The notes beneath the pieces were generated by a model that worked only from the letters and a program-made list of their open reading frames with translations, ran no database searches and had not been told where the DNA came from. Source: a bacterium (GTDB lineage Bacteria > Bacteroidota > Ignavibacteria > UBA10030). From it: DNA of 31,560 nucleotides. A program made the position numbers and the translations under genes. Below, piece after piece: positions 12,540-31,560 of this stretch (position 1 is its first letter; each line of letters begins with the position of its first letter). The DNA lies in NCBI GenBank assembly GCA_043803945.1, contig JAZDJN010000099.1, forward strand, positions 1 to 31,560. The letters are read 5' to 3'.

Positions 12540-12591
12540 AAATTTGCTTCCCTCAATACATAGACGATTTCGATTACCGAGTGCTAATGCC

Positions 12592-12665
12592 AGCTAACTT
12601 TTTTGTAAAAACGCATTTCGCATATTACTATATCAATGTTCGCATAGACGCAATGCGTATATTTT
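12592..12665 (-). other. attI-like site #2
   Basis: minus strand AATGCGTTTTTACAAAAAA-GTTAGCT; no attC palindrome; homologous to 18560-18632. Confidence 0.65.
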
Positions 12666-12677
12666 ACACATAAACAC

Positions 12678-12713
12678 AAAAACCTCCTTCATCGCTCGCA
12701 CGAATCCAGAGGT
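12678..12713 (-). terminator. conserved hairpin plus U-tract (platform hairpin)
   Basis: ACCTCTGGATTCG..CGATGAAGGAGGT-TTTT. Confidence 0.5.
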
Positions 12714-12802
12714 TTCTCTTCTCCGCTACCAACTTCACCTGCCTGTGTGTTCACTCGCGGATACCTTTGTAAATTAAACTCCTGCAGAATAAATAGCACT
12801 AC

Positions 12803-15482: not shown

Positions 15483-16634
15483 TCAGTCCCTCCAGTTTGG
15501 ACCTATCTTTATAAGCTTTGTGAAGCTCCAGAGCTTCGAGTTGGTAAGGCTGTGATAGACGTCCATTTGCATAGTCGTACCATCCAGTACTACCACTCCA
15601 AACCCATGCGCCGGCTGATCCGTGCCAGCTTCCGGTAACACATAGTTATCAAAATATACCTCCCGGCTATTTTTATCTTTTCCAGCAGCAACCTTATTAT
15701 TATCTATGAGATGTAAATGCCCGGTGAAAATACCGAGAACATTATATGGATTTGCTACTGCGCTCGAGCTCAGTACACGATGATGATAACGCCGGCAGAG
15801 GATATCAAGCAGCAGCTGCCTCATGGTGTCGTTCCACCACCTGGCACTACCGTCGTCATCGAGTTCCGTACTGAACCAGTCCCATCCATAGTGCTGCAAA
15901 ATGAACACACCGTTTCCGGAGTCACCTATACTGTCTCTCAGAAACGCATCCACCCAATTGATTCTATCCCAATCTATGTCTGTCTTGCTTACCGCGTTAC
16001 GGCCGCCAGCCCACAAGCCAAGCGATAGGAAGTAATAATTCCCCCAGCGCCAGGCGTAAGTGGTTGTGTCATACGATGTGATATTCGGCGCACCGATGAT
16101 CCGTTTTTGCAGATATTGAGGCGCATCGCCATTACTTGGAAAAGAATTGTTTGTAGAATTTGATACATCATGATTGCCTATATTTGGAAACAAAGGAAAT
16201 TTGATACGATGCGAAACAGGAGTGGTTGACAGGTCGTCTTCATAATAATCGCGGAAATCATTTATGTGATAATGGACAGAATCACCACCTTGCAGCATAT
16301 CACCCATATGGAGTACACCGAGAATGTTAAAATCCTGTCCACGATCATTTACGTGTCGAACTGTTTCATCATTGGCATTTGCTGACCGACCGATATGCGT
16401 ATCGGTGATTATGCCGAAGGCGATTCTCATGGGGTCTGCCGGCACATGAACTTTAATCTTATTCGGTGTGTGTGGAGGCGTCGCCCTGGGTGGCGTAGCA
16501 TCTCCAGGTGGCTCCGAACTTGGATTCTCAACACGACAGGCGATAGGCATTATCAATGAAAGAATAGCCAATATTATGCTGGCAAATTTAAGTAGGTCCT
16601 GATTGCTGACCAATTTTCGGCGATGATCTATCAT
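15483..16634 (-). CDS. calcineurin-like metallophosphoesterase, probable lipoprotein
   Basis: TDTH, MGDM, GNHD, QHYG, GHLH motifs; hydrophobic leader ending in PIAC; RBS AAAGGAG before ATG 16634. Confidence 0.85.
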   Translation of the reverse strand: MIDHRRKLVSNQDLLKFASIILAILSLIMPIACRVENPSSEPPGDATPPRATPPHTPNKIKVHVPADPMRIAFGIITDTHIGRSANANDETVRHVNDRGQDFNILGVLHMGDMLQGGDSVHYHINDFRDYYEDDLSTTPVSHRIKFPLFPNIGNHDVSNSTNNSFPSNGDAPQYLQKRIIGAPNITSYDTTTYAWRWGNYYFLSLGLWAGGRNAVSKTDIDWDRINWVDAFLRDSIGDSGNGVFILQHYGWDWFSTELDDDGSARWWNDTMRQLLLDILCRRYHHRVLSSSAVANPYNVLGIFTGHLHLIDNNKVAAGKDKNSREVYFDNYVLPEAGTDQPAHGFGVVVLDGTTMQMDVYHSLTNSKLWSFTKLIKIGPNWRD

Positions 16635-16921
16635 ATTGTCATCTCCTTTTGTGACACTCCAGTAATATTTAATCAATGAAGTTACGCAGATGATATAACC
16701 ATAAGTGAAATACGGTGGCATATTAGTCTGCCACGAAACGACTAATGTTTCAACCGGTTTTATTCACTTATGTGAATGCAATCTGTTAAAAGTGATTCGC
16801 TCATACTCCTGGCAGTGGATCGCATCCGTAGAATCCATTGCTCAGATCAACTTGCGTAACTTCAGTACCTAACAAATCTTTTGTAGACTTGCACTACTAC
16901 GTGCCTGCTGGCGGACATGCC

Positions 16922-17187
16922 ACATAACGTTTGAGTGTTTGCGCTTGCCCCGAACTTGTCCCGATGCATTGTATCGGGATGTTATTTATCGGGGCCGTTC
17001 AGTGCCGCCACTGCAACGATCCATTACTATGGCGGTATGAAATGGAGCGCTTGTCCGCCATGACTCACCTTTTGGTGGAAGCGCAATTGACAAACCATTA
17101 TTTAGGTTCTTATTCGACATAACCAAACGAGCGAGCCTGCCCACCGAAACAGAGTGCAGGTGGGCGTCGCAAGCACGATTGTTAGGT
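16922..17187 (-). other. attC site, unusually long (266 bp), with nested palindromes
   Basis: ACATAAC...GTTAGGT; GTGTTTGCG/CGCAAGCAC arms. Confidence 0.75.
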
Positions 17188-17244
17188 GGTCGTGCCCCGC
17201 CGTAGGAAGCAAATATGTTCTGCAAGAGTTGGTTGCCAAGCGCA

Positions 17245-17709
17245 CTAGTGTGGACCTCCGATCGCTGAGAGAGACTTATTAGTTCTTCTCTTGTTGAGAT
17301 AACCGAACACGGCACCGAAACCTAGGAATCCAACCAACTGATAGAGTATCCAGAATACCTGATCGGGAACATTGACTGAACCGTAGACAAGAGGATGCGA
17401 CAAATTCCACAGCGTTGTGAGCAACCAGAACGAGAATGCATATTTCATACCATCGATGACTCCGGTCAACCTCCTCGAAAGCGGTAGTATTTCGTAGGCA
17501 AAGACGAACAGAATGCCGAAGAGCCAGCCGATAAGTAATTTCGTCCAGATGAAGTAGAATGCGTTTAACTGTTCAGCACTAAACTTGCCAGGTGGAGCGA
17601 ACTGTGGGCCGTAGACAATCCTTGAGAGTATCGCCCCTCCAACGAACAGGAAGATTCCAAAAGCAAGTCCTGAAATTGTTCCGTCAATAGCGACCTTCTT
17701 GAGTTGCAT
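17245..17709 (-). CDS. membrane protein (~4 TM), cassette paralog 2
   Basis: hydrophobic segments; 28 differences in 154 aa from 18007-18471 by manual count. Confidence 0.8.
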   Translation of the reverse strand: MQLKKVAIDGTISGLAFGIFLFVGGAILSRIVYGPQFAPPGKFSAEQLNAFYFIWTKLLIGWLFGILFVFAYEILPLSRRLTGVIDGMKYAFSFWLLTTLWNLSHPLVYGSVNVPDQVFWILYQLVGFLGFGAVFGYLNKRRTNKSLSAIGGPH

Positions 17710-17797
17710 GAAAGGATCTCCTTTCAAATAAAAATGATTTGTGGCAGTGTGTCTGATGCCGAAAGAACTAGTCTGCTACCATGCGGCGGGGCATGCC

Positions 17798-17951
17798 GCC
17801 TAACGTTTAGGCAAACCGCCGTTGCGAGCCGCCACTATGACTGATCCAATTTCGTGGCGGCGAGCAATGGAGCGAGCTCTTTACATTGAGCCAATCTGAG
17901 CTTCGACATTGCCTATCAAATGTGCGAGCGTCGGTTTGCCGATTGTTAGGC
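17798..17951 (-). other. attC site (154 bp)
   Basis: GCCTAAC...GTTAGGC perfect cores; GGCAAACCG/CGGTTTGCC arms. Confidence 0.85.
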
Positions 17952-18006
17952 GGTCGTGCCCCGCCGCAGAGAAAAAAGTAATGTGTAAGAGTTGGTTGCG
18001 TATGCA

Positions 18007-18471
18007 TTAGTGTAAACCTTCTGTCGTTGGGAGGACCTTTTGAGCCCTTCTCTTGTACAGATAACCCAGCACAGCACCAAAACCTAGGAAGCCAACCAAC
18101 TGATAGAGTATCCAGAATATCTGATCAGGGACATTGACTGAGCCGTAGACCAGAGGGTGAGACAGATCCCAGAGCGTGATGAGCAACCAGAATGAGAGTG
18201 CGTATTTCATTCCGTGGATTGCTCCGCTCAACCTCCTCGATAACGGTAGAACCTCGTATGCTACGGCAAACAGAATACCGAAAAGCCAACCGATTAATAA
18301 TTTCGTCCAGATAAAGTAGAATGCATTCAATTGTTCGGGAGTGAACTTGCCTGGAGGTGCGAATTGCGGTCCATAGATAATCCGTGACAGCACCGCGCCT
18401 CCGAAAAACAGGAAGCAACCCATAGCGAGTCCTGCAATTGTCCCGTCTATGGCGACTTTCTTGAGTTGCAT
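18007..18471 (-). CDS. membrane protein (~4 TM), cassette paralog 1
   Basis: AAAGGAGG RBS; first cassette after the attI-like site. Confidence 0.8.
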   Translation of the reverse strand: MQLKKVAIDGTIAGLAMGCFLFFGGAVLSRIIYGPQFAPPGKFTPEQLNAFYFIWTKLLIGWLFGILFAVAYEVLPLSRRLSGAIHGMKYALSFWLLITLWDLSHPLVYGSVNVPDQIFWILYQLVGFLGFGAVLGYLYKRRAQKVLPTTEGLH

Positions 18472-18559
18472 GAAAAGACCTCCTTTCAAATAACCATGAT
18501 TTGTTGTAGAGAGCCCGTTGGCTGAAGAACTAGTGCGCCACCGTACGGCGGGGCATGCC

Positions 18560-18632
18560 GCCTAACATTCATGTAACAACGCATTGCGTTTATTCCATCT
18601 AAATCGTGATGAAATATGCAATGCGCATATTT
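18560..18632 (-). other. attI-like site #1
   Basis: minus strand AACGCAATGCGTTGTTACATGAAT-GTTAGGC with an upstream GCGCATTGC repeat. Confidence 0.65.
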
Positions 18633-18645
18633 CGCTTAAAGACAC

Positions 18646-18681
18646 AAAACCTCCTTAATCACGCATCGCGAATCCAGAGGT
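18646..18681 (-). terminator. conserved hairpin plus U-tract (platform hairpin)
   Basis: ACCTCTGGATTCGCG..GATTAAGGAGGT-TTTG. Confidence 0.5.
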
Positions 18682-18707
18682 CTTTCTTTCACTGGAAATA
18701 TTTTCAA

Positions 18708-18825
18708 GAGTTGCACGGTTTACTCCTTCGGAAGTACACTTAATCCTTCCCCCTGGAATGCCCCAGCACGGTACTTAAGGGATAACTGTTGGTGAAAAGG
18801 TAGATATGTTTAGCAGTATAGTCAA
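18708..18825 (-). promoter_or_regulatory. sigma70 promoter plus conserved ~75-nt leader, copy 1 (candidate Pc)
   Basis: TTGACT (18825-18820)-17 bp-TACCTT (18802-18797), then the conserved leader. Confidence 0.7.
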
Positions 18826-18862
18826 CAACACAAATCTACCAACAACAAATAGACTTATTGAT

Positions 18863-18898
18863 AAAAACCTCCTTCATCGCCAAAGCGAATTCAGAGGT
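18863..18898 (-). terminator. conserved hairpin plus U-tract (platform hairpin)
   Basis: ACCTCTGAATTCGCTTTGGCGATGAAGGAGGT-TTTT. Confidence 0.5.
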
Positions 18899-19037
18899 CT
18901 TCTTCTCCGCTACCAACTTCACAACTCTGAGTGTTCGTTAACGGATTACCGAATCAAACATAAACTATTCTGTAATAAAACGCACTATGGACGGAGCGAG
19001 AAAACTTCCGACTCTATATATCTCCGGGTCGAGTGTC

Positions 19038-20303
19038 TCAAACTTTTTCCTTGACCACTTTTGCTTCTTTCAAGAGTTTATCAGTATGCACCATGCCAAA
19101 TCCGGGAGCTGTAGGTACATTAAGAAGGCCGTCCTTCACCATTATAGGCGGGTCAAAGAGTGGACCGGTTTGTTCAATTCCGCTTTTTAATTCTTGGAAC
19201 TTACCCATATTCGGCGTGAAACTAAAAAAATTCACCATGTCCGCAAATCCTGTATTGCCACTGGAAATATGTGTCGTGATGGGTATTTGTGCCGCGGCAG
19301 CCATTCGCGCAATCCTTGTCGTGCGAATATATCCGCCATAATAATGTAAATCCGGTTGAACGATTCTTAAGGCTTTGTTCCTGATCATCCAGGCAAACCG
19401 ATATTCGCTCGACTCCTGTTCGCCTCCGGATACCGGAATGGTGAGGGCGTCGGCAACCTGCTTGGTGGAATCAAGATCATCGAATGGGCATGGTTCTTCA
19501 AAAAGATAGGCGTTAATAGCTTCCAGTCGTTTACCGACCTCGATAGCTTTGGAGACATCGAACGAACCGTTGGCATCGGCCTGGATAGTGATTGAATCTC
19601 CCAACACTTTTCTAGAGAGTTCAATGAGATCCTCCGAACGATTCGGCATGGAATCTCTGTTACGGCTCATTCTTCCGCCTACTTTGAACTTCACTGCCTT
19701 CGCACCGGTCTCGGTGATTCGTTGTTGAAGAATCTTGACCTCTTCTACCGGCGTGGTTTCGCGGTTCCCGCTTGCAACATAAATAGGGACTTTATCGCGG
19801 ACCTTTCCGCCGAATAAGACGCTGATATGTTGGTGAGCTGTTTTTCCCAGCATATCAAGAATGCTTGCTTCCACCCATGCGACACAGCACCAAAACGGCA
19901 ATCCCTGCATTTTATAGTTGCTGTCATAGACATAGACGCCATCTAATAACGTTTCGAGGTCGCGTGCATCCTTCCCGATGAAGAATGGAATTACTTGTTG
20001 GAGGAGCATGGGATACAGGAAACTGATTTTTTCATTTGTCATGAAAAGCCCGACCGCTCCATCCCTGGATCGGGTGCGAACCAAAAAGAACCTGCCGCTT
20101 TTCAATAGGTTGATCGATTCGATGATGACCGGGCTTGTGAGAGACTCCAGATGAAGAACCGGTTTATTTGCCGCTGCCATCAGTGCATCATGTTCTTGAA
20201 GAGAAGAATCTCTGGAAGAACCAACGGTTGATACAGTTGAAAATGGAATGAAGAGAGACGTTGAAAGAGATGTTCTAAGAAAATGACGACGATTGAAATT
20301 CAT
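19038..20303 (-). CDS. mandelate racemase/muconate lactonizing enzyme family protein with a Tat signal
   Basis: NRRHFL leader; KFK, DANG, FEEP, GGEQE, QPD motifs. Confidence 0.9.
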   Translation of the reverse strand: MNFNRRHFLRTSLSTSLFIPFSTVSTVGSSRDSSLQEHDALMAAANKPVLHLESLTSPVIIESINLLKSGRFFLVRTRSRDGAVGLFMTNEKISFLYPMLLQQVIPFFIGKDARDLETLLDGVYVYDSNYKMQGLPFWCCVAWVEASILDMLGKTAHQHISVLFGGKVRDKVPIYVASGNRETTPVEEVKILQQRITETGAKAVKFKVGGRMSRNRDSMPNRSEDLIELSRKVLGDSITIQADANGSFDVSKAIEVGKRLEAINAYLFEEPCPFDDLDSTKQVADALTIPVSGGEQESSEYRFAWMIRNKALRIVQPDLHYYGGYIRTTRIARMAAAAQIPITTHISSGNTGFADMVNFFSFTPNMGKFQELKSGIEQTGPLFDPPIMVKDGLLNVPTAPGFGMVHTDKLLKEAKVVKEKV

Positions 20304-20366
20304 ATATACCTCTAATAGAAATATTTATGCCGTTTATCGACGTCGATAACCACAATTCGTTCTCAG

Positions 20367-20482
20367 GAGCTGCACGGTTTACTCCTTCGGAAGTACGCTT
20401 AATCCTTCCCCACGGAATGCCCCAGCATGGTACATAAGGAATGTGTCTGAAGAAATGTAGAAATGTTTGGCAGGAGAGTCAA
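20367..20482 (-). promoter_or_regulatory. sigma70 promoter plus conserved leader, copy 2
   Basis: TTGACT (20482-20477)-17 bp-TACATT (20459-20454), then the conserved leader. Confidence 0.7.
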
Positions 20483-20616
20483 TAACGCAAACAGGTCAAT
20501 AGCCGAGAAGCATGTGCTTTTTCTCAGGTAAACACCTGAACACTAAATGGCGTGAATAGAACTTACTATAGGAGGCGGTTTATAAATACCTACTCTGTAC
20601 GTAAAAAAAGTCGTCG

Positions 20617-20645
20617 TTGATTAACCGGAATCATATTATTATATT
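20617..20645 (+). promoter_or_regulatory. candidate sigma70 promoter for the GIY-YIG/tRNA unit
   Basis: TTGATT-17 bp-TATATT. Confidence 0.5.
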
Positions 20646-20740
20646 GTTTTTGAAGGAAGTGAAGCCATTAGACAAGTGGTTACTAATAGATCATTTCAAA
20701 AGGTTTTTAGAAAGTGTCGGATCATCAAGAACCTTAAGTT

Positions 20741-20831
20741 TCATCGGGACGTAGCGCAGTTCCGTTCCGCTCTCAGAGCGGGACGAGAATCCACGTCCCG
20801 AATGAAATTCGGGACGGGACCCGGAAGCGCA
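20741..20831 (+). pseudogene. duplicated 5' fragment of tRNA-Pro with a palindromic insert in the D-loop
   Basis: TTCATCGGGACGTAGCGCAG identical to 21071-21090; resumes CCCGGA-AGCGCA after a ~60-bp insert. Confidence 0.75.
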
Positions 20832-20835
20832 AAAG

Positions 20836-21099
20836 ATGTCATATTATGTCTATATCTTGCGGAGTAAAGTATCGGGTCAGTATTATGTGGGACAGACAGA
20901 TAATCTCCTATCCCGTGTAGAGAAACATAACAAGGGTGAAGTGCAATCAACAAAACCATTTCGTCCTTGGGAATTAGTTCATTGCGAAGAATACCAAACT
21001 CGCGGTGAAGCTGTAAGAAGAGAACGAGCAATAAAGGCAAAGAAGAAAAGAAAGTTTATTGAAGAACTTATTCATCGGGACGTAGCGCAGCCCGGATAG
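20836..21099 (+). CDS. small GIY-YIG nuclease
   Basis: YYVYIL..YYVGQT..R..HN.G..TK..RPW..A..RE..IK; stop codon lies in the tRNA D-loop. Confidence 0.9.
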   Translation: MSYYVYILRSKVSGQYYVGQTDNLLSRVEKHNKGEVQSTKPFRPWELVHCEEYQTRGEAVRRERAIKAKKKRKFIEELIHRDVAQPG

Positions 21100-21150
21100 C
21101 GCACTTGCTTGGGGTGCAAGGGGTCGCGGGTTCAAATCCCGCCGTCCCGA
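21076..21150 (+). tRNA. tRNA-Pro (GGG)
   Basis: acceptor CGGGACG/CGTCCCG, anticodon arm CTTGC-TTGGGGT-GCAAG, T-loop GGTTCAAATCC; CCA not encoded. Confidence 0.95.
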
Positions 21151-21372
21151 CTTCCAACTTGACCGGACTTAGTGAGCGAAGCTAAGTTCGCTGTCAAGTT
21201 GAGAATCTCGACATGCTGTTGGTCGGGATCTAACCATATATAGGACCTTTTTTTAAGCTCAGGAGTAATCTCTTGAGCTTTTCTTTTGTAGGGGTGTCCC
21301 GCCAAACTGCGGCCGGATCCTGAAATATCAATCGTGCTGAGTCAATCGATGATCTCCAATCGGAGCGCAAGT

Positions 21373-21524
21373 ACACCTCGTGATAGATTCCAAACAACGA
21401 CATTTTGGAATCACTATTATTTTCTTTTAAGAAATACAGAAATCCCTTAGTGATCCTCGAATGACTCTGTCGAGGATCTGCTATACGGAGCAACAAAACA
21501 CCTCGTGATAGATTCCAAACAACG
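21373..21524. repeat. 27-bp direct repeat
   Basis: ACACCTCGTGATAGATTCCAAACAACG at 21373-21399 and 21498-21524. Confidence 0.85.
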
Positions 21525-21664
21525 GCCCGCCTGTGCAGATACTTCAGTGGCAGCCGGGGAGCACCAAGAGAAAAGAGAATTGATAGATATTTAAATACGT
21601 AAGTGTAAATGAATGGTATCTACTCAGTTCGTTTAGTGCTCCTACAGTTTTCGCTTATCTTTTT

Positions 21665-21714
21665 GAGGCTGACTAAAAAGTTGGTCGAGCAGGCTGCTCG
21701 ACCTACAAGACTTA
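21665..21714. repeat. second copy of the GGTCGAGCAGGCTGCTCGACC palindrome with a MITE-like end
   Basis: closely similar to 1505-1554. Confidence 0.7.
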
Positions 21715-21786
21715 ACATCCGTTCATTATCTTATCCCAAGAGAAACAAAAAGGAAACCAAATTATACTTTTGGCGAACATGCTGAG

Positions 21787-22452
21787 TTATAACACAACGT
21801 TATTTAAATATTCCACTGCCTCATGGGCATGTGGTGAAAAGAAATCAGCGCCAATTTTAGTGCAAAATTTTTGCGTGATTGGAGCGCCGCCAATCAATAT
21901 TTTTGTGTCGGGATAAGTTTTCTTAATGGCTATGACGCTATTTTCCATATTGCGCATTGTTGTTGTCAGTAAAGCAGAAAGCCCTATAAAACAACCTGGG
22001 TGCTTGGCAAGTGCATCCAAAAATTTATTGGTCGGTACATCCACGCCAAGATCGATCACTTCAAATCCGCCGCCTGTGATAATCATGGAGACAAGATTTT
22101 TACCGATGTCATGCAAATCGCCGGAAACGGTTCCAATCACAAATTTGCCTTTGCGTTTCACCTCACCGGATTCCAGGAATGGCTTTATATGTTTCAACAC
22201 AGCATTCATTGCTCCGGCAGAAACGACCAGATTGGTCACGAACGCTCTATTCTCACTAAATTCTTTCCCGATCTTTTCCATCCCCAGCATGCAACCCTCT
22301 AAGAGAATATTCGGGTGAATGCCTTTCTTTAACGCATCGGCAGCAACCTCATCAGCGCCGTCTTGATCTTTCATATCCGGTGGAAAGGGTGCTGATTTGG
22401 AAACTTTACCTCGAGCGATGCACATCGCAATTTTTTCAACATACTCTTGCAT
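21787..22452 (-). CDS. corrinoid (B12-binding) methyltransferase protein
   Basis: GDLHDIGKNLV (DxHxxG), DLGVDVP, GLSALLT, GGAP. Confidence 0.92.
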   Translation of the reverse strand: MQEYVEKIAMCIARGKVSKSAPFPPDMKDQDGADEVAADALKKGIHPNILLEGCMLGMEKIGKEFSENRAFVTNLVVSAGAMNAVLKHIKPFLESGEVKRKGKFVIGTVSGDLHDIGKNLVSMIITGGGFEVIDLGVDVPTNKFLDALAKHPGCFIGLSALLTTTMRNMENSVIAIKKTYPDTKILIGGAPITQKFCTKIGADFFSPHAHEAVEYLNNVVL

Positions 22453-22463
22453 AATCCCTCTCT

Positions 22464-23360
22464 CTAGTTTGTTATAGTTAATCCTGCTTCTTTTATAATA
22501 GTCGGAGTGATACTTTCCCACATCACAGGCATTAAGTGGATGCCTCGAACTCCATGTATATTTTTAAGCGTACGAATAATTTCAACGGCCATTTTAACGC
22601 CCTCTTCTTTAGGATCGCGCGCATGGTTCATTCTGTCAATATATTCGTCCTTGATCTTAATGCCAGGAACTTCTTCTCTCATCCAGAGCAGCGTTTTTAC
22701 CGATCGTACAGGCATAACGCCAGCGAGGATCGCCGTTTTTTCATGCAGGCCCATTTCGACCACTTTTTCCATCCACCGGGTGAAAATCTCCAGGTCAAAG
22801 ACAGGCTGTGTTTGAATGAAATGCACACCGGCCTTGATTTTTTTATACAGACGAATTAATCGCATTTCAAACGGTTGAGCAAATGGATTCGCCGCTGCAC
22901 CGATGAGAAAGTCAGGTGCTTTTTTCATTTCACAACCGGAAAGCAAAAAACCGTCGTTCATCTTAGCAACGGCAGCAATGAGCTGAATGGAATCAAGGTC
23001 AAAGACTCCTTTAGCTTCGGGTTGGTCGCCAAATGTTTGATAGTCGCCGGTCAGGCAGAGCACATTCCGGATCCCTAACGCTGCGGCTCCTAACAGATCA
23101 CTTTGAATCGCCAGTCTGTTGCGGTCCCGGCAAGTTACCTGCATGATCGGCTCAACGCCTTCGTCTAATAAGATCTTCGCTGAGGCCATACTCGACAACC
23201 GAACAATCGCTTTCTGGTTGTCGGTGATATTCACCGCATCAACATAGCCCTTGAAATATTTTAATTTCTCCCGGAGAACATCGGCATCACAGCTTTGCGG
23301 CGGGCCGATTTCTCCGCAAAGAATAAACTGATTCGATTCAATTTTCTGTTTCAGCGTCAT
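22464..23360 (-). CDS. metF: methylenetetrahydrofolate reductase
   Basis: AVNITDN, TCRDRNR, LTGD, FIQTQPVFD, GIHLM. Confidence 0.92.
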   Translation of the reverse strand: MTLKQKIESNQFILCGEIGPPQSCDADVLREKLKYFKGYVDAVNITDNQKAIVRLSSMASAKILLDEGVEPIMQVTCRDRNRLAIQSDLLGAAALGIRNVLCLTGDYQTFGDQPEAKGVFDLDSIQLIAAVAKMNDGFLLSGCEMKKAPDFLIGAAANPFAQPFEMRLIRLYKKIKAGVHFIQTQPVFDLEIFTRWMEKVVEMGLHEKTAILAGVMPVRSVKTLLWMREEVPGIKIKDEYIDRMNHARDPKEEGVKMAVEIIRTLKNIHGVRGIHLMPVMWESITPTIIKEAGLTITN

Positions 23361-23817
23361 TAGAAATCATGTCCTTCACTTTTTGTTTATCATTGCGAAC
23401 GAACCAGATCGGTGCTTTAATTCGCTTTTTGAATACATTCAGCCACGACGATGTACCTTCCAGATTCCAGTTGTGGATTTTATTTATCGTATATAACAAG
23501 CTGATGCGATTCAACAGTATTGACCGATAATATATTTTGTACCATACGCACTTTCGATCAGGATACACTTCACACGATCCATCCTCGCCGGTTCCCCCGC
23601 ATGGACCATTGCGCAGCCGTTTTGGACAATTCTGGGAACAGATAAATGCGGTCGAGGATAAGATGCACTCGCCGCAATGTTGACACCGAAATAACGGCAC
23701 TTTGATAAGGTCTTCAAAAAAAAGGATAAGACGTGAGAATTTTCGTTCGTTTGCTGTAATGGGGGGTTTGTTTAAAGCGGCTAAGTCTTTTGACAAAGGT
23801 ATTTCCTTGTAGTTCAA
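23338..23817 (-). CDS. MTHFR small Cys-rich subunit (MetV-like)
   Basis: CQHCGEC..C..NCPKRLRNGPCGG..CEV..CVW; overlaps the metF start. Confidence 0.85.
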   Translation of the reverse strand: MNYKEIPLSKDLAALNKPPITANERKFSRLILFFEDLIKVPLFRCQHCGECILSSTAFICSQNCPKRLRNGPCGGTGEDGSCEVYPDRKCVWYKIYYRSILLNRISLLYTINKIHNWNLEGTSSWLNVFKKRIKAPIWFVRNDKQKVKDMISNDAETEN

Positions 23818-23916
23818 TTATGCCTGAGAAGTGCTTTTTTGTCTTTCAGCGAAAAGCATTCATCAATCATGCAATTTCATTTCACACAATTCACATCCAT
23901 TAAATTCGCTGGCGGT

Positions 23917-24789
23917 TTAAGAATAATACATCATCACTCTCATGATAGCGTCAATGCCTTCCAGTTTCAACACATCGTGTAAACATTGCATCGCTGGAGC
24001 ATCATCTGTCAACAGTGAGTATTTTCGTTTGACAGAACCGATGATGGTGTTCAATCCCAGTGGCATTGCCATAGTCAGAAATGCATTTTCCAGCGGGCCT
24101 TTCACCGGCGAACCGTCTGCCTTCTTGGAAGGCAGCATTGCTGTAAAATTACTCAATCCAACCGACATGTTGACACCGCTAAGATCTTTATCCTGATGAA
24201 TCAGCGCCATCGCATCCATGAGCCGCTTAAAATCTCCTTTAGAATCACTCCCGATCGGCATGATGCCGGGATCAAGAACGAGTTGCTCGTTCACCAGATG
24301 GTGTATCCGTTTTCGTGCGATGCTCACCATGAATTTCGCCGTAGCATAGATTTGTTCGGCTGATTTATTCATGATCATTTCACCGGAATCATCCATTCCT
24401 TCCGTGACAAGTAAAATAGGAATGAACGGTTGATTTGCATACATGTCAAACATTTCCAGGCGTGCTTCAGAAATTGAATTCAGAATCGGCTTTCGATTTC
24501 CAGCACGTTTAGCATTGTAAGCTTCCAACCCTGCAGCCGCAATTCCCGGATCAGGGGTATCTATTGAAAGCGGGAGCGAAATATGCTCTTGAATTTTTTT
24601 AATAACTTCTGCCATAAAGCCCGGAGAGCGGGGTCCAACATTTACATCAATATACGCCGCACCATTTTCTGCCTGCACTTTAGCCAAATCAACAATGCCA
24701 TCAATGTTATTTTCTTCAAATAATGTGTGAGTGGATGGGACCGAGTCATTAATGGATTCACCGATGATAGTAAGACCAGGGATACTCAT
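23917..24789 (-). CDS. pterin-binding methyltetrahydrofolate:corrinoid methyltransferase (AcsE/MetH pterin domain-like)
   Basis: IIGESIN, YIDVN, LSIDT, ILNS, LDPG, GLSNF. Confidence 0.85.
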   Translation of the reverse strand: MSIPGLTIIGESINDSVPSTHTLFEENNIDGIVDLAKVQAENGAAYIDVNVGPRSPGFMAEVIKKIQEHISLPLSIDTPDPGIAAAGLEAYNAKRAGNRKPILNSISEARLEMFDMYANQPFIPILLVTEGMDDSGEMIMNKSAEQIYATAKFMVSIARKRIHHLVNEQLVLDPGIMPIGSDSKGDFKRLMDAMALIHQDKDLSGVNMSVGLSNFTAMLPSKKADGSPVKGPLENAFLTMAMPLGLNTIIGSVKRKYSLLTDDAPAMQCLHDVLKLEGIDAIMRVMMYYS

Positions 24790-24990
24790 TCACTTACCTC
24801 CTTCACAAAACATTTAGAAAAAAATCACCAATGAGTTTAGGTGGCTTCCAGACAAGATGGCGTTCTCACTTCTTCATAAATCATCCATCAAGTGCTTAAC
24901 ACCATGGTATCTACGATTCAACACATTTGTAAATATCAAAGTGTGTCACAAATCCAGAGGTCTATCGTTCAATGGAATTATTCTTTTCAG

Positions 24991-25106
24991 AAGTTGCTCG
25001 GTTTACTCCTTCGGAAGCACGTTTAATCCTTCCCCACGGAATGCTCCAGCAGTGTACTTAAGGTATGATTCTGGAAGAATGTAGAAATGTTTGCCAGGAT
25101 AGTCAA
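24991..25106 (-). promoter_or_regulatory. sigma70 promoter plus conserved leader, copy 3
   Basis: TTGACT (25106-25101)-17 bp-TACATT (25083-25078); followed by half of the platform hairpin at 24951-24963. Confidence 0.7.
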
Positions 25107-25187
25107 TAACTCAATTTAGTGGAGGTACTTTCACTCTTTGCGATATCCGATACTGTGCAACAAGATAAAATCCATTAACCCTCCAAT

Positions 25188-25224
25188 AAAAAAAGCCGTC
25201 ACCAACAGTGTTGATGACGGCTTT
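25188..25224 (-). terminator. intrinsic terminator (copy of the atpG terminator)
   Basis: AAAGCCGTCA..TGACGGCTTTTTTT. Confidence 0.8.
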
Positions 25225-25243
25225 GAAGAACTGAAGTCCCTTC

Positions 25244-25516
25244 CTATCTGGCTTTTTTCAAGGCCTCGGCACCGCTGACGATCTCAAGAAGTTCTTTGGT
25301 AATGGCTGCCTGGCGGGCGTTATTAAATTTCAATGTCAGCACCCGGATGAGATCTTTTGCATTTTCCGTCGCATTATCCATTGCGGTCATTCGTGCACCC
25401 TGTTCAGCAGCATTCGATTCAAGCAGAATGCGCCACGCCTGATAGTTAAGGTGCCGCGGGATCAGTGCACTGACGAACTCGACGCTTGAAGGTTCATAAA
25501 TATATTCCACCTGCGC
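25244..25516 (-). pseudogene. atpG: duplicated 3' ~90 codons of atpG
   Basis: aligns to 28040-28312; 4 aa differences plus several synonymous changes. Confidence 0.92.
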
Positions 25517-25700: not shown

Positions 25701-27368
25701 TTACTTCTTCTTTATTTCTTCCTTCAATCGCTTGATGTGGCCACGGCCTAATCCTTTTACTTCACAACCATATTCCAGATACTGCTTGATTTTATCATCA
25801 GTCAGAATTCCATAGCAATCAATTAATGCGAATGGTTGACCAACCCATTTAATAATTTCTCGAGGATTAAGTCTAACATACGGTTCGTGCGGAACTGCAA
25901 GTATGAGCGCCTCGACTCCTTTCAATGCCTTGGCCAGATCCTTCTGAACATGAATAGACGTCAGTCCTTCCTGATTTCTGAAAAATCGCTTCCAGGAATA
26001 CCCGACTGCTGGATATGTATCTTGATCCTCCAATTCAGGCCAGTGATCTACGTACGGATCGTGTACATGCAGATCAGCTCCCATTTCAGCCAATTTCCGA
26101 ACGACAAGTTCGCTGCCACTGTAGCGTGTATCACCTACATCCTGTCGATAGCTTGCCCCGCAAAGGAGGACATTTGCTGATGCGATATGACGCCCCATAT
26201 TCCGTAGTGCATCACGTGTTAGTTCAGCAACGTGTAATGCACGCATATCATTTATATCGATAGCATTCGGTGTAATTTTGAAAATTGAATCTCCATCTTC
26301 AAATCCGAGTATGTGCTGATACGCCCAGTAACCAAGTCCTCCATCCTTCGGAAGACAGTATCCGCCAATTCCGGGTCCTGGAAAAATAATGTTATTGTGT
26401 GTTGGGCGCATTTTTATCGCTTTGATGATCTTGATCAGATCGATGCCGTTTCGTTCGGCGAAAAGGCTCCATTCGTTTAGGAAAGCTAAAATTGTAGCTC
26501 GATATGAATTCTCAACTATCTTTGTTGTTTCCGATTCAATGGGGCGATCCATCACGGTTAATGGAAATTGCTTTGTGTTTAGTACTTCGTGTAAAAATTT
26601 TTCAACTCGGTTTCGTGCTTTTTCATTACACCCAGAGCAGACACGCCAGAAGTCGCGGATGCTGGCAACGTACTCTCGACCGGGCATCACACGCTCAAAG
26701 CTATGCGCAAGTAAAGGCTCAGAGTTGATACCACGGATAGCAAATGCTTTCTTGAGAATTGGCCATGCGATATATTCGGTAGTTCCAGGTGCAACGGTTG
26801 TTTCGATCAGGACGAGACACTCTGGTGAAATATTATCACCGATAGTCCTCATTGTCGCTTCGAGCGCTGACATATCTGCTTCACCAGTGCGCATATTGCC
26901 GAGCTCTTTTTTCAGAAAATCGCATTGTACATCGACCACGACACAATCAGCAAGTTTGAGGCATTCGCTATTGAAGGAAGCTATCAGTGTCTTCTTCTTT
27001 TTTACACACCTCTCAATGATTTGATCGACTTCTGGATCTTCTGCTTTGACAGGAGAAATACCACGGTTAAAGTACTTAATTTTCCAGTAACTTCGTGTAC
27101 TTGGTCTTTGATACCCGATAACAAATTTGCTTGGCCTCTTTTTATCATCTACAGAGTCTGCAATGATTGCTGCCATGACAGCACCCACAAAACCAAGTCC
27201 CACTACCACAACAATTTCTTTTCCTTCTTTGCGGGCTTGCTCTACTTTCGCTGCAACTTTCTTATATTCTTCATTATAGCTCGTTTTTTTTGGCAATCTG
27301 AATTTAATATGCGATGGACTAATAGAGATTTTAGGAATGACTCTTTTGGAATCGGTTTTGATTGACAT
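25701..27368 (-). CDS. nucleotide-sugar dehydrogenase (UDP-glucose/GDP-mannose dehydrogenase family)
   Basis: GLGFVG, ETTVAPGTT, ERVMPG, PGPGIGGYCLPKD, HDPYV. Confidence 0.9.
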   Translation of the reverse strand: MSIKTDSKRVIPKISISPSHIKFRLPKKTSYNEEYKKVAAKVEQARKEGKEIVVVVGLGFVGAVMAAIIADSVDDKKRPSKFVIGYQRPSTRSYWKIKYFNRGISPVKAEDPEVDQIIERCVKKKKTLIASFNSECLKLADCVVVDVQCDFLKKELGNMRTGEADMSALEATMRTIGDNISPECLVLIETTVAPGTTEYIAWPILKKAFAIRGINSEPLLAHSFERVMPGREYVASIRDFWRVCSGCNEKARNRVEKFLHEVLNTKQFPLTVMDRPIESETTKIVENSYRATILAFLNEWSLFAERNGIDLIKIIKAIKMRPTHNNIIFPGPGIGGYCLPKDGGLGYWAYQHILGFEDGDSIFKITPNAIDINDMRALHVAELTRDALRNMGRHIASANVLLCGASYRQDVGDTRYSGSELVVRKLAEMGADLHVHDPYVDHWPELEDQDTYPAVGYSWKRFFRNQEGLTSIHVQKDLAKALKGVEALILAVPHEPYVRLNPREIIKWVGQPFALIDCYGILTDDKIKQYLEYGCEVKGLGRGHIKRLKEEIKKK

Positions 27369-27984: not shown

Positions 27985-28017
27985 AAAAAAGCCGTCTCCA
28001 ACTGTGTTGAAAACGGC
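27985..28017 (-). terminator. atp operon intrinsic terminator
   Basis: GCCGT..ACGGC-TTTTTT after atpG. Confidence 0.75.
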
Positions 28018-28039
28018 CCTGAAGAATAAGAGTCCTTCC

Positions 28040-28939
28040 CTATCCGGCTTTTTTCAAAGCCTCGGCACCGCTTACGATCTCGAGAAGTTCTTTTGTAATT
28101 GCTGCCTGTCGGGCATTATTGAATTTCAATGTCAGCGCCCGGATGAGATCTTTTGCATTTTCCGTCGCATTATCCATTGCGGTCATTCGTGCACCCTGTT
28201 CAGCAGCATTCGATTCAAGCAGAATGCGCCAGGCCTGATAGTTGAGATGCCGCGGTATCAGTGCATTGACGAGCTCGACGCTTGAAGGTTCATAAATATA
28301 TTCCACCTGCGCAAGTGCATGGAGATCACCAGGTTTGTGCTGCGTCTCTTCGGGGGGAATGGGGAGCAATTGTTCGACAACAATCTTCTGCTGAATCACC
28401 GACTTGAATTCGTTGTAGATCACTTCAACTTTATCAAACTCGCCTTTCAGGTATCCTTCGGTGATTTCGGTAACGAGCTCACGCGCATCGCCAAAATCGA
28501 GAGAGTTAAAGATGCCGACATGCTTTGCATAGAGCGGATAATTCCGCTTCGAAAAGAATTCGAATCCTCTCTTGCCGACAGTGATCAGGCGAAGATCTTC
28601 CCGCGCAACCTCTTCTTTGTAGTGAGCCTGGATATGCTGAACGGCAGCGCGGATGATGTTGCTGTTGAAGGCACCGCACAATCCACGGTCGGCGGTGACA
28701 ATGATCAGAATCGACTTCTTCACTTCACGGCTTGCCAACAAGGGATTCAGCAAAGGATCAACCTTCGTCACGAGATGGCGCAAGAGTCTGCCCAGCTTGC
28801 GAGCGTACGGCCGTGTTGAAATAATGGCCTCCTGTGCACGGCGAAGTTTTGCCGCAGCGACCATTTTCATCGCTTTCGTGATCTTCTGGGTGTTTTTTAC
28901 GCCGCTGATGCGGCTGCGAATTTCTCTTAATGTTGCCAT
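28040..28939 (-). CDS. atpG: ATP synthase F1 gamma
   Basis: [37 protein letters not shown]. Confidence 0.98.
   Translation of the reverse strand: MATLREIRSRISGVKNTQKITKAMKMVAAAKLRRAQEAIISTRPYARKLGRLLRHLVTKVDPLLNPLLASREVKKSILIIVTADRGLCGAFNSNIIRAAVQHIQAHYKEEVAREDLRLITVGKRGFEFFSKRNYPLYAKHVGIFNSLDFGDARELVTEITEGYLKGEFDKVEVIYNEFKSVIQQKIVVEQLLPIPPEETQHKPGDLHALAQVEYIYEPSSVELVNALIPRHLNYQAWRILLESNAAEQGARMTAMDNATENAKDLIRALTLKFNNARQAAITKELLEIVSGAEALKKAG

Positions 28940-31440: not shown

Positions 31441-31560
<120 letters not shown>

Follow-up and report, generated by a model that had tools for sequence, protein, structure and literature searches.

A multicopy promoter-leader module as a probable integrase-less head of integron cassette arrays in an Ignavibacteria genome

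The 31,560-nt stretch of DNA analysed here in full (the window) carries three copies of a ~75-nt leader, all on the minus strand. A preliminary description had reported three such copies, and a CM built from all genomic copies and run with filters off confirmed each of them, returning exactly 3 leader matches in the window (E 6.5e-29 to 4.5e-27) and a next best match at E 1.7. The leaders and the features that accompany them are:

18697..18784, minus strand, leader copy 1 (CM 107.2 bits, E 6.5e-29), enclosing the element originally noted at 18708-18782
20356..20443, minus strand, leader copy 2 (CM 106.8 bits)
24980..25067, minus strand, leader copy 3 (CM 100.9 bits)
18797..18825, minus strand, promoter-like site of copy 1, TTGACT-N17-TACCTT (10/12 against TTGACT-N17-TATATT)
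20454..20482, minus strand, promoter-like site of copy 2, TTGACT-N17-TACATT (11/12)
25078..25106, minus strand, promoter-like site of copy 3, TTGACT-N17-TACATT (11/12)
18637..18691, minus strand, module 4 hairpin of copy 1 (nhmmer 48.5 bits; folded)
18551..18648, minus strand, attI-like module 5 of copy 1 (nhmmer 87 bits), with terminal core GTTAGGC at 18566-18560
18855..18908, minus strand, lone module 4 hairpin that follows the 421-aa gene and immediately precedes the copy 1 promoter (nhmmer 48.3 bits)
12581..12720, minus strand, module 4 (12720-12670) and module 5 (12680-12581) with neither promoter nor leader (nhmmer)
17787..17958, minus strand, canonical ~175-nt attC of the first cassette (attC profile 179.6 bits)

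In copy 1 the leader is followed by module 4, a hairpin whose interrupted stem contains a 4x4 internal loop and which leads into a U-run and GTG, and by module 5; the attC of the first cassette has its GCCTAAC box at 17951-17945 and its GTTAGGC core at 17804-17798. Copy 2 abuts the 5' region of a 421-aa enolase-superfamily gene (19038-20303; Pfam MR_MLE_C) and has neither the hairpin nor the attI-like module. Copy 3 is followed only by the 5' half of module 4 (24971-24946; partial nhmmer match, 17.6 bits), and downstream of it lies a four-gene operon (21787-24789) assigned by Pfam to a pterin-binding methyltransferase, an MTHFR C-terminal domain protein, an MTHFR and a B12-binding protein. The promoter of copy 3 directly follows the terminator of a partial atpG copy. 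The modules at 12581..12720 follow a 697-aa T9SS-tail gene (Pfam Por_Secre_tail) and close with the core GTTAGCT at 12598-12592.

The source genome is metagenome-derived and comprises 5.54 Mb in 118 contigs, so that array heads lying at contig ends are invisible. BLAST and CM searches agree on 11 leader copies in it: three in the window, one each on contigs C4, C114, C25, C103, C81 and C15, and two on C35. By BLAST the others are 71-85% identical to copy 3, and the CM scores of all copies range from 78.7 to 113.4 bits. Alignment of the surroundings revealed a modular unit in which promoter and leader are the sole parts common to all 11 copies. The unit begins with an optional upstream block of ~100 nt (complete in 4 copies, partial in 2), continues with the promoter-like site, ~15 poorly conserved bases, the ~75-nt leader and a ~30-nt spacer, and proceeds to module 4, a hairpin with a U-run that is complete in 7/11 copies, reduced to half in window copy 3 and wholly missing from 3/11. 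Module 5, an imperfect inverted repeat, closes the unit in 5/11 copies. At the 5' boundary, no cassette core or terminal inverted repeat was found in any copy.

Mean pairwise identity per 10-nt block across the 11 genomic copies is 0.88 where the promoter spacer ends and the -10 hexamer begins, 0.56 in the block between the -10 and the leader core, 0.81-0.95 within the core (CGTGCTGGGG...GGAGTA) and 0.66-0.68 just 3' of it. The core is the most conserved block of the module, which bears out the original observation that the leader is better conserved than its flanks. A coding remnant was ruled out, since copies vary by 1-nt indels within the core and share no conserved reading frame.

The constant distance from a conserved promoter that had been claimed for the three copies likewise stands: TTGACT-N17-TAC(A/C)TT precedes each of them, and 62, 60 and 60 nt separate the end of the -10 hexamer from the invariant CTTCCGAAGGAG anchor in copies 1 to 3, respectively. 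Genome-wide, 7/11 leader copies match the promoter pattern at 10/12 positions or better (range 10-11), and 3/11 have a poor -35 hexamer (TTGTTT, 8/12). TTGACT-N16-18-TATATT was found at 10/12 or better upstream of 10 of 47 tRNA genes versus 33 of 2000 random 120-mers, an enrichment that is partly circular, as the tRNA set used for this count was also the one inspected by eye to derive the consensus. Judged by its sequence, the site upstream of the leader is a credible sigma-70-type promoter with predicted activity and a predicted transcription start. One sparse metatranscriptome run, which covered only 6% of sampled words and is uninformative on expression, yielded contigs solely on 18305-18477, 20652-21090 and 23213-23245 (33 nt), none overlapping a leader copy.

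The module shows an orientation bias, with a co-oriented ORF of at least 80 aa beginning 187-550 nt after the start of the element in 10/11 copies. The first downstream genes are functionally unrelated. They encode 10 proteins, 8 with different Pfam families and 2 with none: a pterin-binding methyltransferase, an enolase-superfamily enzyme, an unassigned membrane protein, a methyladenine-glycosylase-like protein, a DUF2971 protein, a caspase-PEGA protein, a BNR protein, a ThsB-type TIR protein, an unassigned protein and an AAA_15 ATPase.

An nhmmer profile of module 4 detected 25 copies genome-wide. The hairpin is built of an outer stem, a 4x4 purine-rich internal loop (GGAU/UGAA), an inner stem, a U-run and GTG; the inner stem shows compensatory changes (GC to AU, CG to UA), and the loop and the U-run-GTG segment are conserved. 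Copies lie mostly between co-oriented genes and also before attI-like sites. A simple terminator scan did not call the hairpin. Its possible roles are those of a terminator, an RNA motif bound by protein or a site of translation start. Given that the promoter-like site and the U-run hairpin bracket ~150 nt in 7/11 copies, promoter, leader and module 4 might together constitute a multicopy gene for a trans-acting sRNA of that length, with the downstream genes using other promoters; conservation at the level of sequence, predicted loops included, would suit a base-pairing seed. We regard this as improbable. The hairpin is missing or halved in the copies noted above, yet the leader is kept there directly upstream of a gene, and the orientation bias toward downstream ORFs and the occurrence of module 4 after ordinary genes without any leader also argue against it.

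Integron recombination cores are GTTRRRY-type motifs. Module 5 closes with a core of the GTTAGGC type, and homology between copies ends there. Clean terminal cores were found in copy 1, in the copies on C114, C81 and C15, and in modules that stand without promoter or leader at window 12720-12581, on C14 and upstream of the C40 array. On C114 the core reads GTTATGC and is exactly complementary to the GCATAAC box of the attC that belongs to the cassette behind it, a signature of cassette insertion. A profile of the ~175-nt attC family with GCCTAAC and GTTAGGC boxes identified 45 sites on 16 contigs of the genome and placed an attC on the same strand, at most 5 kb downstream, in 6/11 leader copies. 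The leader had been said to lie ahead of a hairpin that leads into the cassettes; this hairpin, present with its U-run in the 7/11 copies, does precede integron cassettes. Module 5 itself is not a canonical attC, a possibility ruled out because no long attC-type hairpin is formed (fold z +0.7 to -1.8). We call it attI-like on account of this missing hairpin and of the motifs that it shares with the site right after intI on C5, which ends in GTTATGC.

The first two cassettes behind copy 1 start at the same base after the core, be it the module 5 core (18566-18560) or the attC core (17804-17798). Their 160-aa membrane-protein ORFs (17245-17727 and 18007-18489, minus strand) are paralogous and belong to no Pfam family. 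With ~80% nucleotide identity over 633 nt, the pair is a tandem cassette duplication within the array.

Conservation of the leader core could also act at the level of DNA, as an operator for a repressor of acquired promoters or as an accessory binding region for the integrase. The core DNA contains nested inverted repeats (TTCC-N4-GGAA and GGAAG-N11-CTTCC) and its loops are conserved like its stems. There is also a precedent: according to the portion of the report available (PMC9410878), the class 1 integron leader once proposed to be an aminoglycoside riboswitch is the attI1 integration site, and experiments excluded the riboswitch. We nonetheless hold a DNA-level explanation to be quite improbable here, as the core sits ~155-170 nt upstream of the crossover core with a hairpin between them, is retained in 6/11 copies that have no attI-like module, and could be matched with no candidate binding protein.

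No integrase gene adjoins a complete leader copy. Matches to TIGR02249, all below cut-off, occur on C5, C65, C41, C45, C70, C17, C102, C48, C95, C39 and others, and integrase traces near leader copies consist of a 39-residue intI fragment (C35:39023-39136) and a weakly IntI-like recombinase upstream of the C103 copy. The leader copy preceding the intI fragment, at C35:38893, is truncated and fused in the same orientation to the last 39 codons of intI (about 1630-1745 of locus L011). The fusion records a rearrangement that involved both the promoter module and an integrase locus.

The leader was found in 0/40 relatives (BLAST with a 201-nt stretch), 0/85 other genomes of the family (CM) and 0/150 other genomes sampled across the class (CM). 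Plasmid and phage collections contained no leader match, and a strict leader pattern had 0 matches among species-representative genomes. A looser pattern gave 3 matches in species-representative genomes, 1 in JGI metagenome contigs and 0 in viral contigs. Upon rescoring, three of these four loci matched over the pattern span only (11-17 bits) and the fourth not at all, and for this reason we judge all four to be chance matches and not homologues. The leader is probably lineage-specific. The attC family, by comparison, occurs in 27/85 other family genomes with up to 90% identity, including 10/10 genomes of one genus, which points to an old integron cassette pool common to the bacterial family. 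Queries with modules 4 and 5 recovered a module 4 match in two genomes of that genus, G098 and G091 (L065:1500-1550 and L066:545-592). Both have a promoter-like site and a ~60-nt leader ahead of module 4, and in G098 the sequence past the hairpin ends in an attI-like GTTAGGC core, with an attC following 4.8 kb further on. The two leaders are alike but unlike the 75-nt element, and the CM scores nothing there. Because the related genus has it with a different leader, the layout that runs from promoter through leader and hairpin to attI-like site predates the present genome, and the 75-nt leader is a local version that has multiplied.

Searches of the whole window against Rfam 15 at the gathering threshold recovered only tRNA and a group II intron domain, with no leader match, and relaxing to E<=10 over 16500-25500 placed nothing on any leader copy. 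Single folds of six 110-nt segments (four sense strand, two antisense controls) were no stabler than shuffles (z -1.8 to +0.9). Two transcripts of 155-159 nt behaved like shuffles as well (z -0.6), and their minimum-energy leader folds differ from each other. RNAalifold proposed a consensus rod of 18 pairs with a covariation term of +0.17 kcal/mol; across the 11 sequences, 94.9% of cells can pair in this structure versus 94.2% after shuffling (42/500 shuffles reach the observed value), and 1/18 pairs is compensatory in a set whose mean column identity of 86% leaves diversity too low for covariation. Both hairpins named in the preliminary description are kept in the three window copies, and the alternative GGAAG/CUUCC pairing that it mentioned is present within the RNAalifold consensus. 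Extended to all 11 copies, the two hairpins pair in 97.3% of cells versus 96.1% in shuffles and contain one compensatory pair in 10; shuffles matched them in pairing in 50/500 cases and in covariation score in 45/500, which is no convincing excess. The UACUUC-CGAA-GGAGUA hairpin is paired in 100% of cells and holds the sole compensatory pair (AU in 7 copies, GU in 2, GC in 2). In the UUCC/GGAA hairpin, 3 cells are unpaired; they fall in 3/11 copies, and none is compensated.

These results weigh heavily against the riboswitch that had been put forward as one function of the element. A metabolite- or ion-sensing riboswitch would fit the 5' UTR position, the ease with which the leader is drawn as hairpins and the U-run hairpin downstream. 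Such a function is nevertheless very unlikely, because the leader was found in none of the other genomes and contigs searched, has no Rfam match at either threshold, precedes genes without a common pathway and shows negligible covariation, with folds resembling those of shuffled sequences. The suggestion that GGA motifs in the leader serve as CsrA-type sites is excluded, since a genome scored as 100% complete encodes no CsrA (PF02599, 0 matches; the same model matched in 3/14 reference genomes).

At the 3' end of the leader, inside the small hairpin, lies a Shine-Dalgarno-like AAGGAG. A GTG or ATG start codon stands 6 nt after it in 8/11 copies and is absent in 3/11; C15 retains the ATG although the neighbouring sequence has diverged. 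The short ORF that follows spans 13-38 codons and enters or crosses module 4 wherever both are present, and its frame is not conserved, with 1-nt indels between copies. In addition, all leader copies contain a chain of overlapping complementary segments. The leader could accordingly be pictured as a cis-acting attenuator or translational switch, in which mutually exclusive helices (UUCC/GGAA, GGAAG/CUUCC, CUUCC/GGAG, GGAGU/ACUCC) and the short ORF decide whether module 4 forms and hence whether polymerase or ribosomes pass. In favor of this are the overlapping segments, the completely paired hairpin that would sequester AAGGAG, with its one AU-to-GC compensatory change, the placement of the start codon and its survival in C15, the entry of the short ORF into module 4, the fact that module 4 is a true hairpin, bearing compensatory changes and followed by a U-run, and the conserved place of that hairpin between promoter and attI-like site in another genus. 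Several observations make us doubtful of it, and we rate it as unlikely: fold energies are like those of shuffles and minimum-energy structures vary among copies, covariation does not rise above controls, the short ORF is missing from 3/11 copies and inconstant in length and frame in the others, module 4 is lacking in 3/11 copies and escapes the terminator scan, and the related genus puts a different leader before the same hairpin.

The interpretation that we consider probable, with some reservation, is that the element is the leader of an amplified, lineage-specific promoter module that acts as an integrase-less head of the Pc-attI type for cassette arrays, a truncated form of which serves other accessory genes. 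A sigma-70-type promoter would transcribe the ~75-nt leader ending in the SD-like AAGGAG hairpin, followed by the ~30-nt spacer, module 4, and module 5 with its GTTAGGC-type core. Unrelated cassettes, each with its own attC, have been inserted at that core. Truncated copies consisting of promoter and leader only, joined directly to other accessory genes, would represent a portable promoter. What the data show directly are the copies and their anatomy, the orientation bias, the junctions with cassettes and the lack of the leader in the other genomes searched. We infer that the promoter is active and that what preserves the leader is a role of its sequence in expression rather than ligand sensing. 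Candidates for such a role are the 5' end of the mRNA, the SD-containing hairpin and possibly the short upstream ORF, translation of which could open module 4 and let ribosomes or polymerase continue into the cassettes. A sequence-specific function is suggested by how strongly the core is conserved, and the AAGGAG hairpin and the start codon 6 nt on are the best concrete candidates for it. That ~50 nt are conserved, predicted loops included, beyond the needs of a plain 5' UTR hints at a specific partner. If module 4 is an efficient terminator, the product would be a short RNA and the cassettes would not be expressed, which counts against a role as array head. Also against it are the lack of an integrase gene beside any complete copy, of the attI-like module in 6/11 copies and of a good -35 hexamer in 3/11. 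The attenuator, sRNA and DNA-level explanations overlap with this role and are not mutually exclusive with it. A more speculative combination, which we offer tentatively, is that the modules are satellite integron heads in which one regulated leader device switches many arrays and accessory genes together, with integrases supplied in trans from elsewhere. It is equally tentative that alternative hairpins and the short ORF of such a device decide if module 4 stops transcription and translation or lets them pass.

Compared with the Pc-attI region of class 1 integrons as described in the available part of PMC9410878, the module has in common a conserved non-coding stretch after a promoter, unrelated cassette genes and a GTTRRRY-type terminal core, and in both cases conservation invited a riboswitch reading. 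It differs in having no adjoining integrase gene, in occurring 11 times in one genome, and in a 75-nt core that is separate from the recombination site and survives in copies without that site. Vibrio superintegrons contain gene-less cassettes that bear promoters (Blanco et al. 2024, PMC11014356, as far as the text available describes them). Like these, the present module is a short non-coding unit in or at the head of arrays driving promoterless cassettes, an activity shown in Vibrio and predicted here. Judged from the same portion of that paper, the Vibrio units are true cassettes between attC sites, whereas here there is no 5' core and the 3' site is attI-like; with no 5' core in any copy and no long hairpin in module 5, the copies are not gene-less promoter cassettes. 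CALINs are clusters of attC sites without an integrase, and integrons have been reported in Chlorobi and Ignavibacteriae (Neron et al. 2022, PMC9024848, in the sections available). The genome resembles this description in having several attC clusters without a neighbouring intI. CALINs are, in those sections, defined by attC only, unlike several clusters here, which carry a common promoter, leader and attI-like head. We found no description of such shared heads on attC clusters in the literature searched, supplementary files aside. JUMPStart/ops elements are conserved leaders of long accessory operons and are served by NusG paralogues. The present leader is similar in being a short, conserved 5' leader common to unrelated acquired operons in one genome. 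It is dissimilar in that this genome has a single NusG-family gene and no specialised paralogue, and for that reason an ops-like antitermination mechanism was rejected. The present unit differs from the known integron systems in being multicopy with no adjoining integrase, in having no 5' recombination core and in a conserved core set apart from the recombination site.

For expression of the silent bulk of chromosomal integron cassettes, two routes are recognised, namely one Pc promoter at the platform and promoter cassettes in scattered positions. In the present genome, one promoter-leader unit seems to have been multiplied and set at several attI-like sites as well as before other accessory genes. 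If so, this would be a simple means of keeping many small arrays expressed without an integrase beside each. The case also calls for caution, in that a conserved leader before diverse cassette genes mimics a riboswitch and integron architecture explains it better, as it does for class 1 integrons in the account cited above.

Further features were observed in the window. The 3' end of atpG, next to leader copy 3, is duplicated (25189-25488 and 27985-28284; 91% identity over 300 nt), and the two copies flank a ~2.8-kb segment with a 555-aa gene of the UDP-glucose/GDP-mannose dehydrogenase family (25701-27368, minus strand). The arrangement resembles the outcome of an insertion directly 3' of atpG, which either carried in or generated a second copy of the target end. 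Between leader copy 2 and tRNA-Pro(GGG) (21076-21150, plus strand) lies a segment in which the first 15 bases of the tRNA gene occur twice, at 20745-20759 and 21076-21090. The repeats enclose an ORF for an 87-aa GIY-YIG nuclease (20836-21099), and the end of this ORF overlaps the tRNA gene. At the window's end, upstream of atpH-atpA-atpG, the group II intron catalytic domain detected by Rfam (54.2 bits) occupies 31441-31520 on the minus strand.
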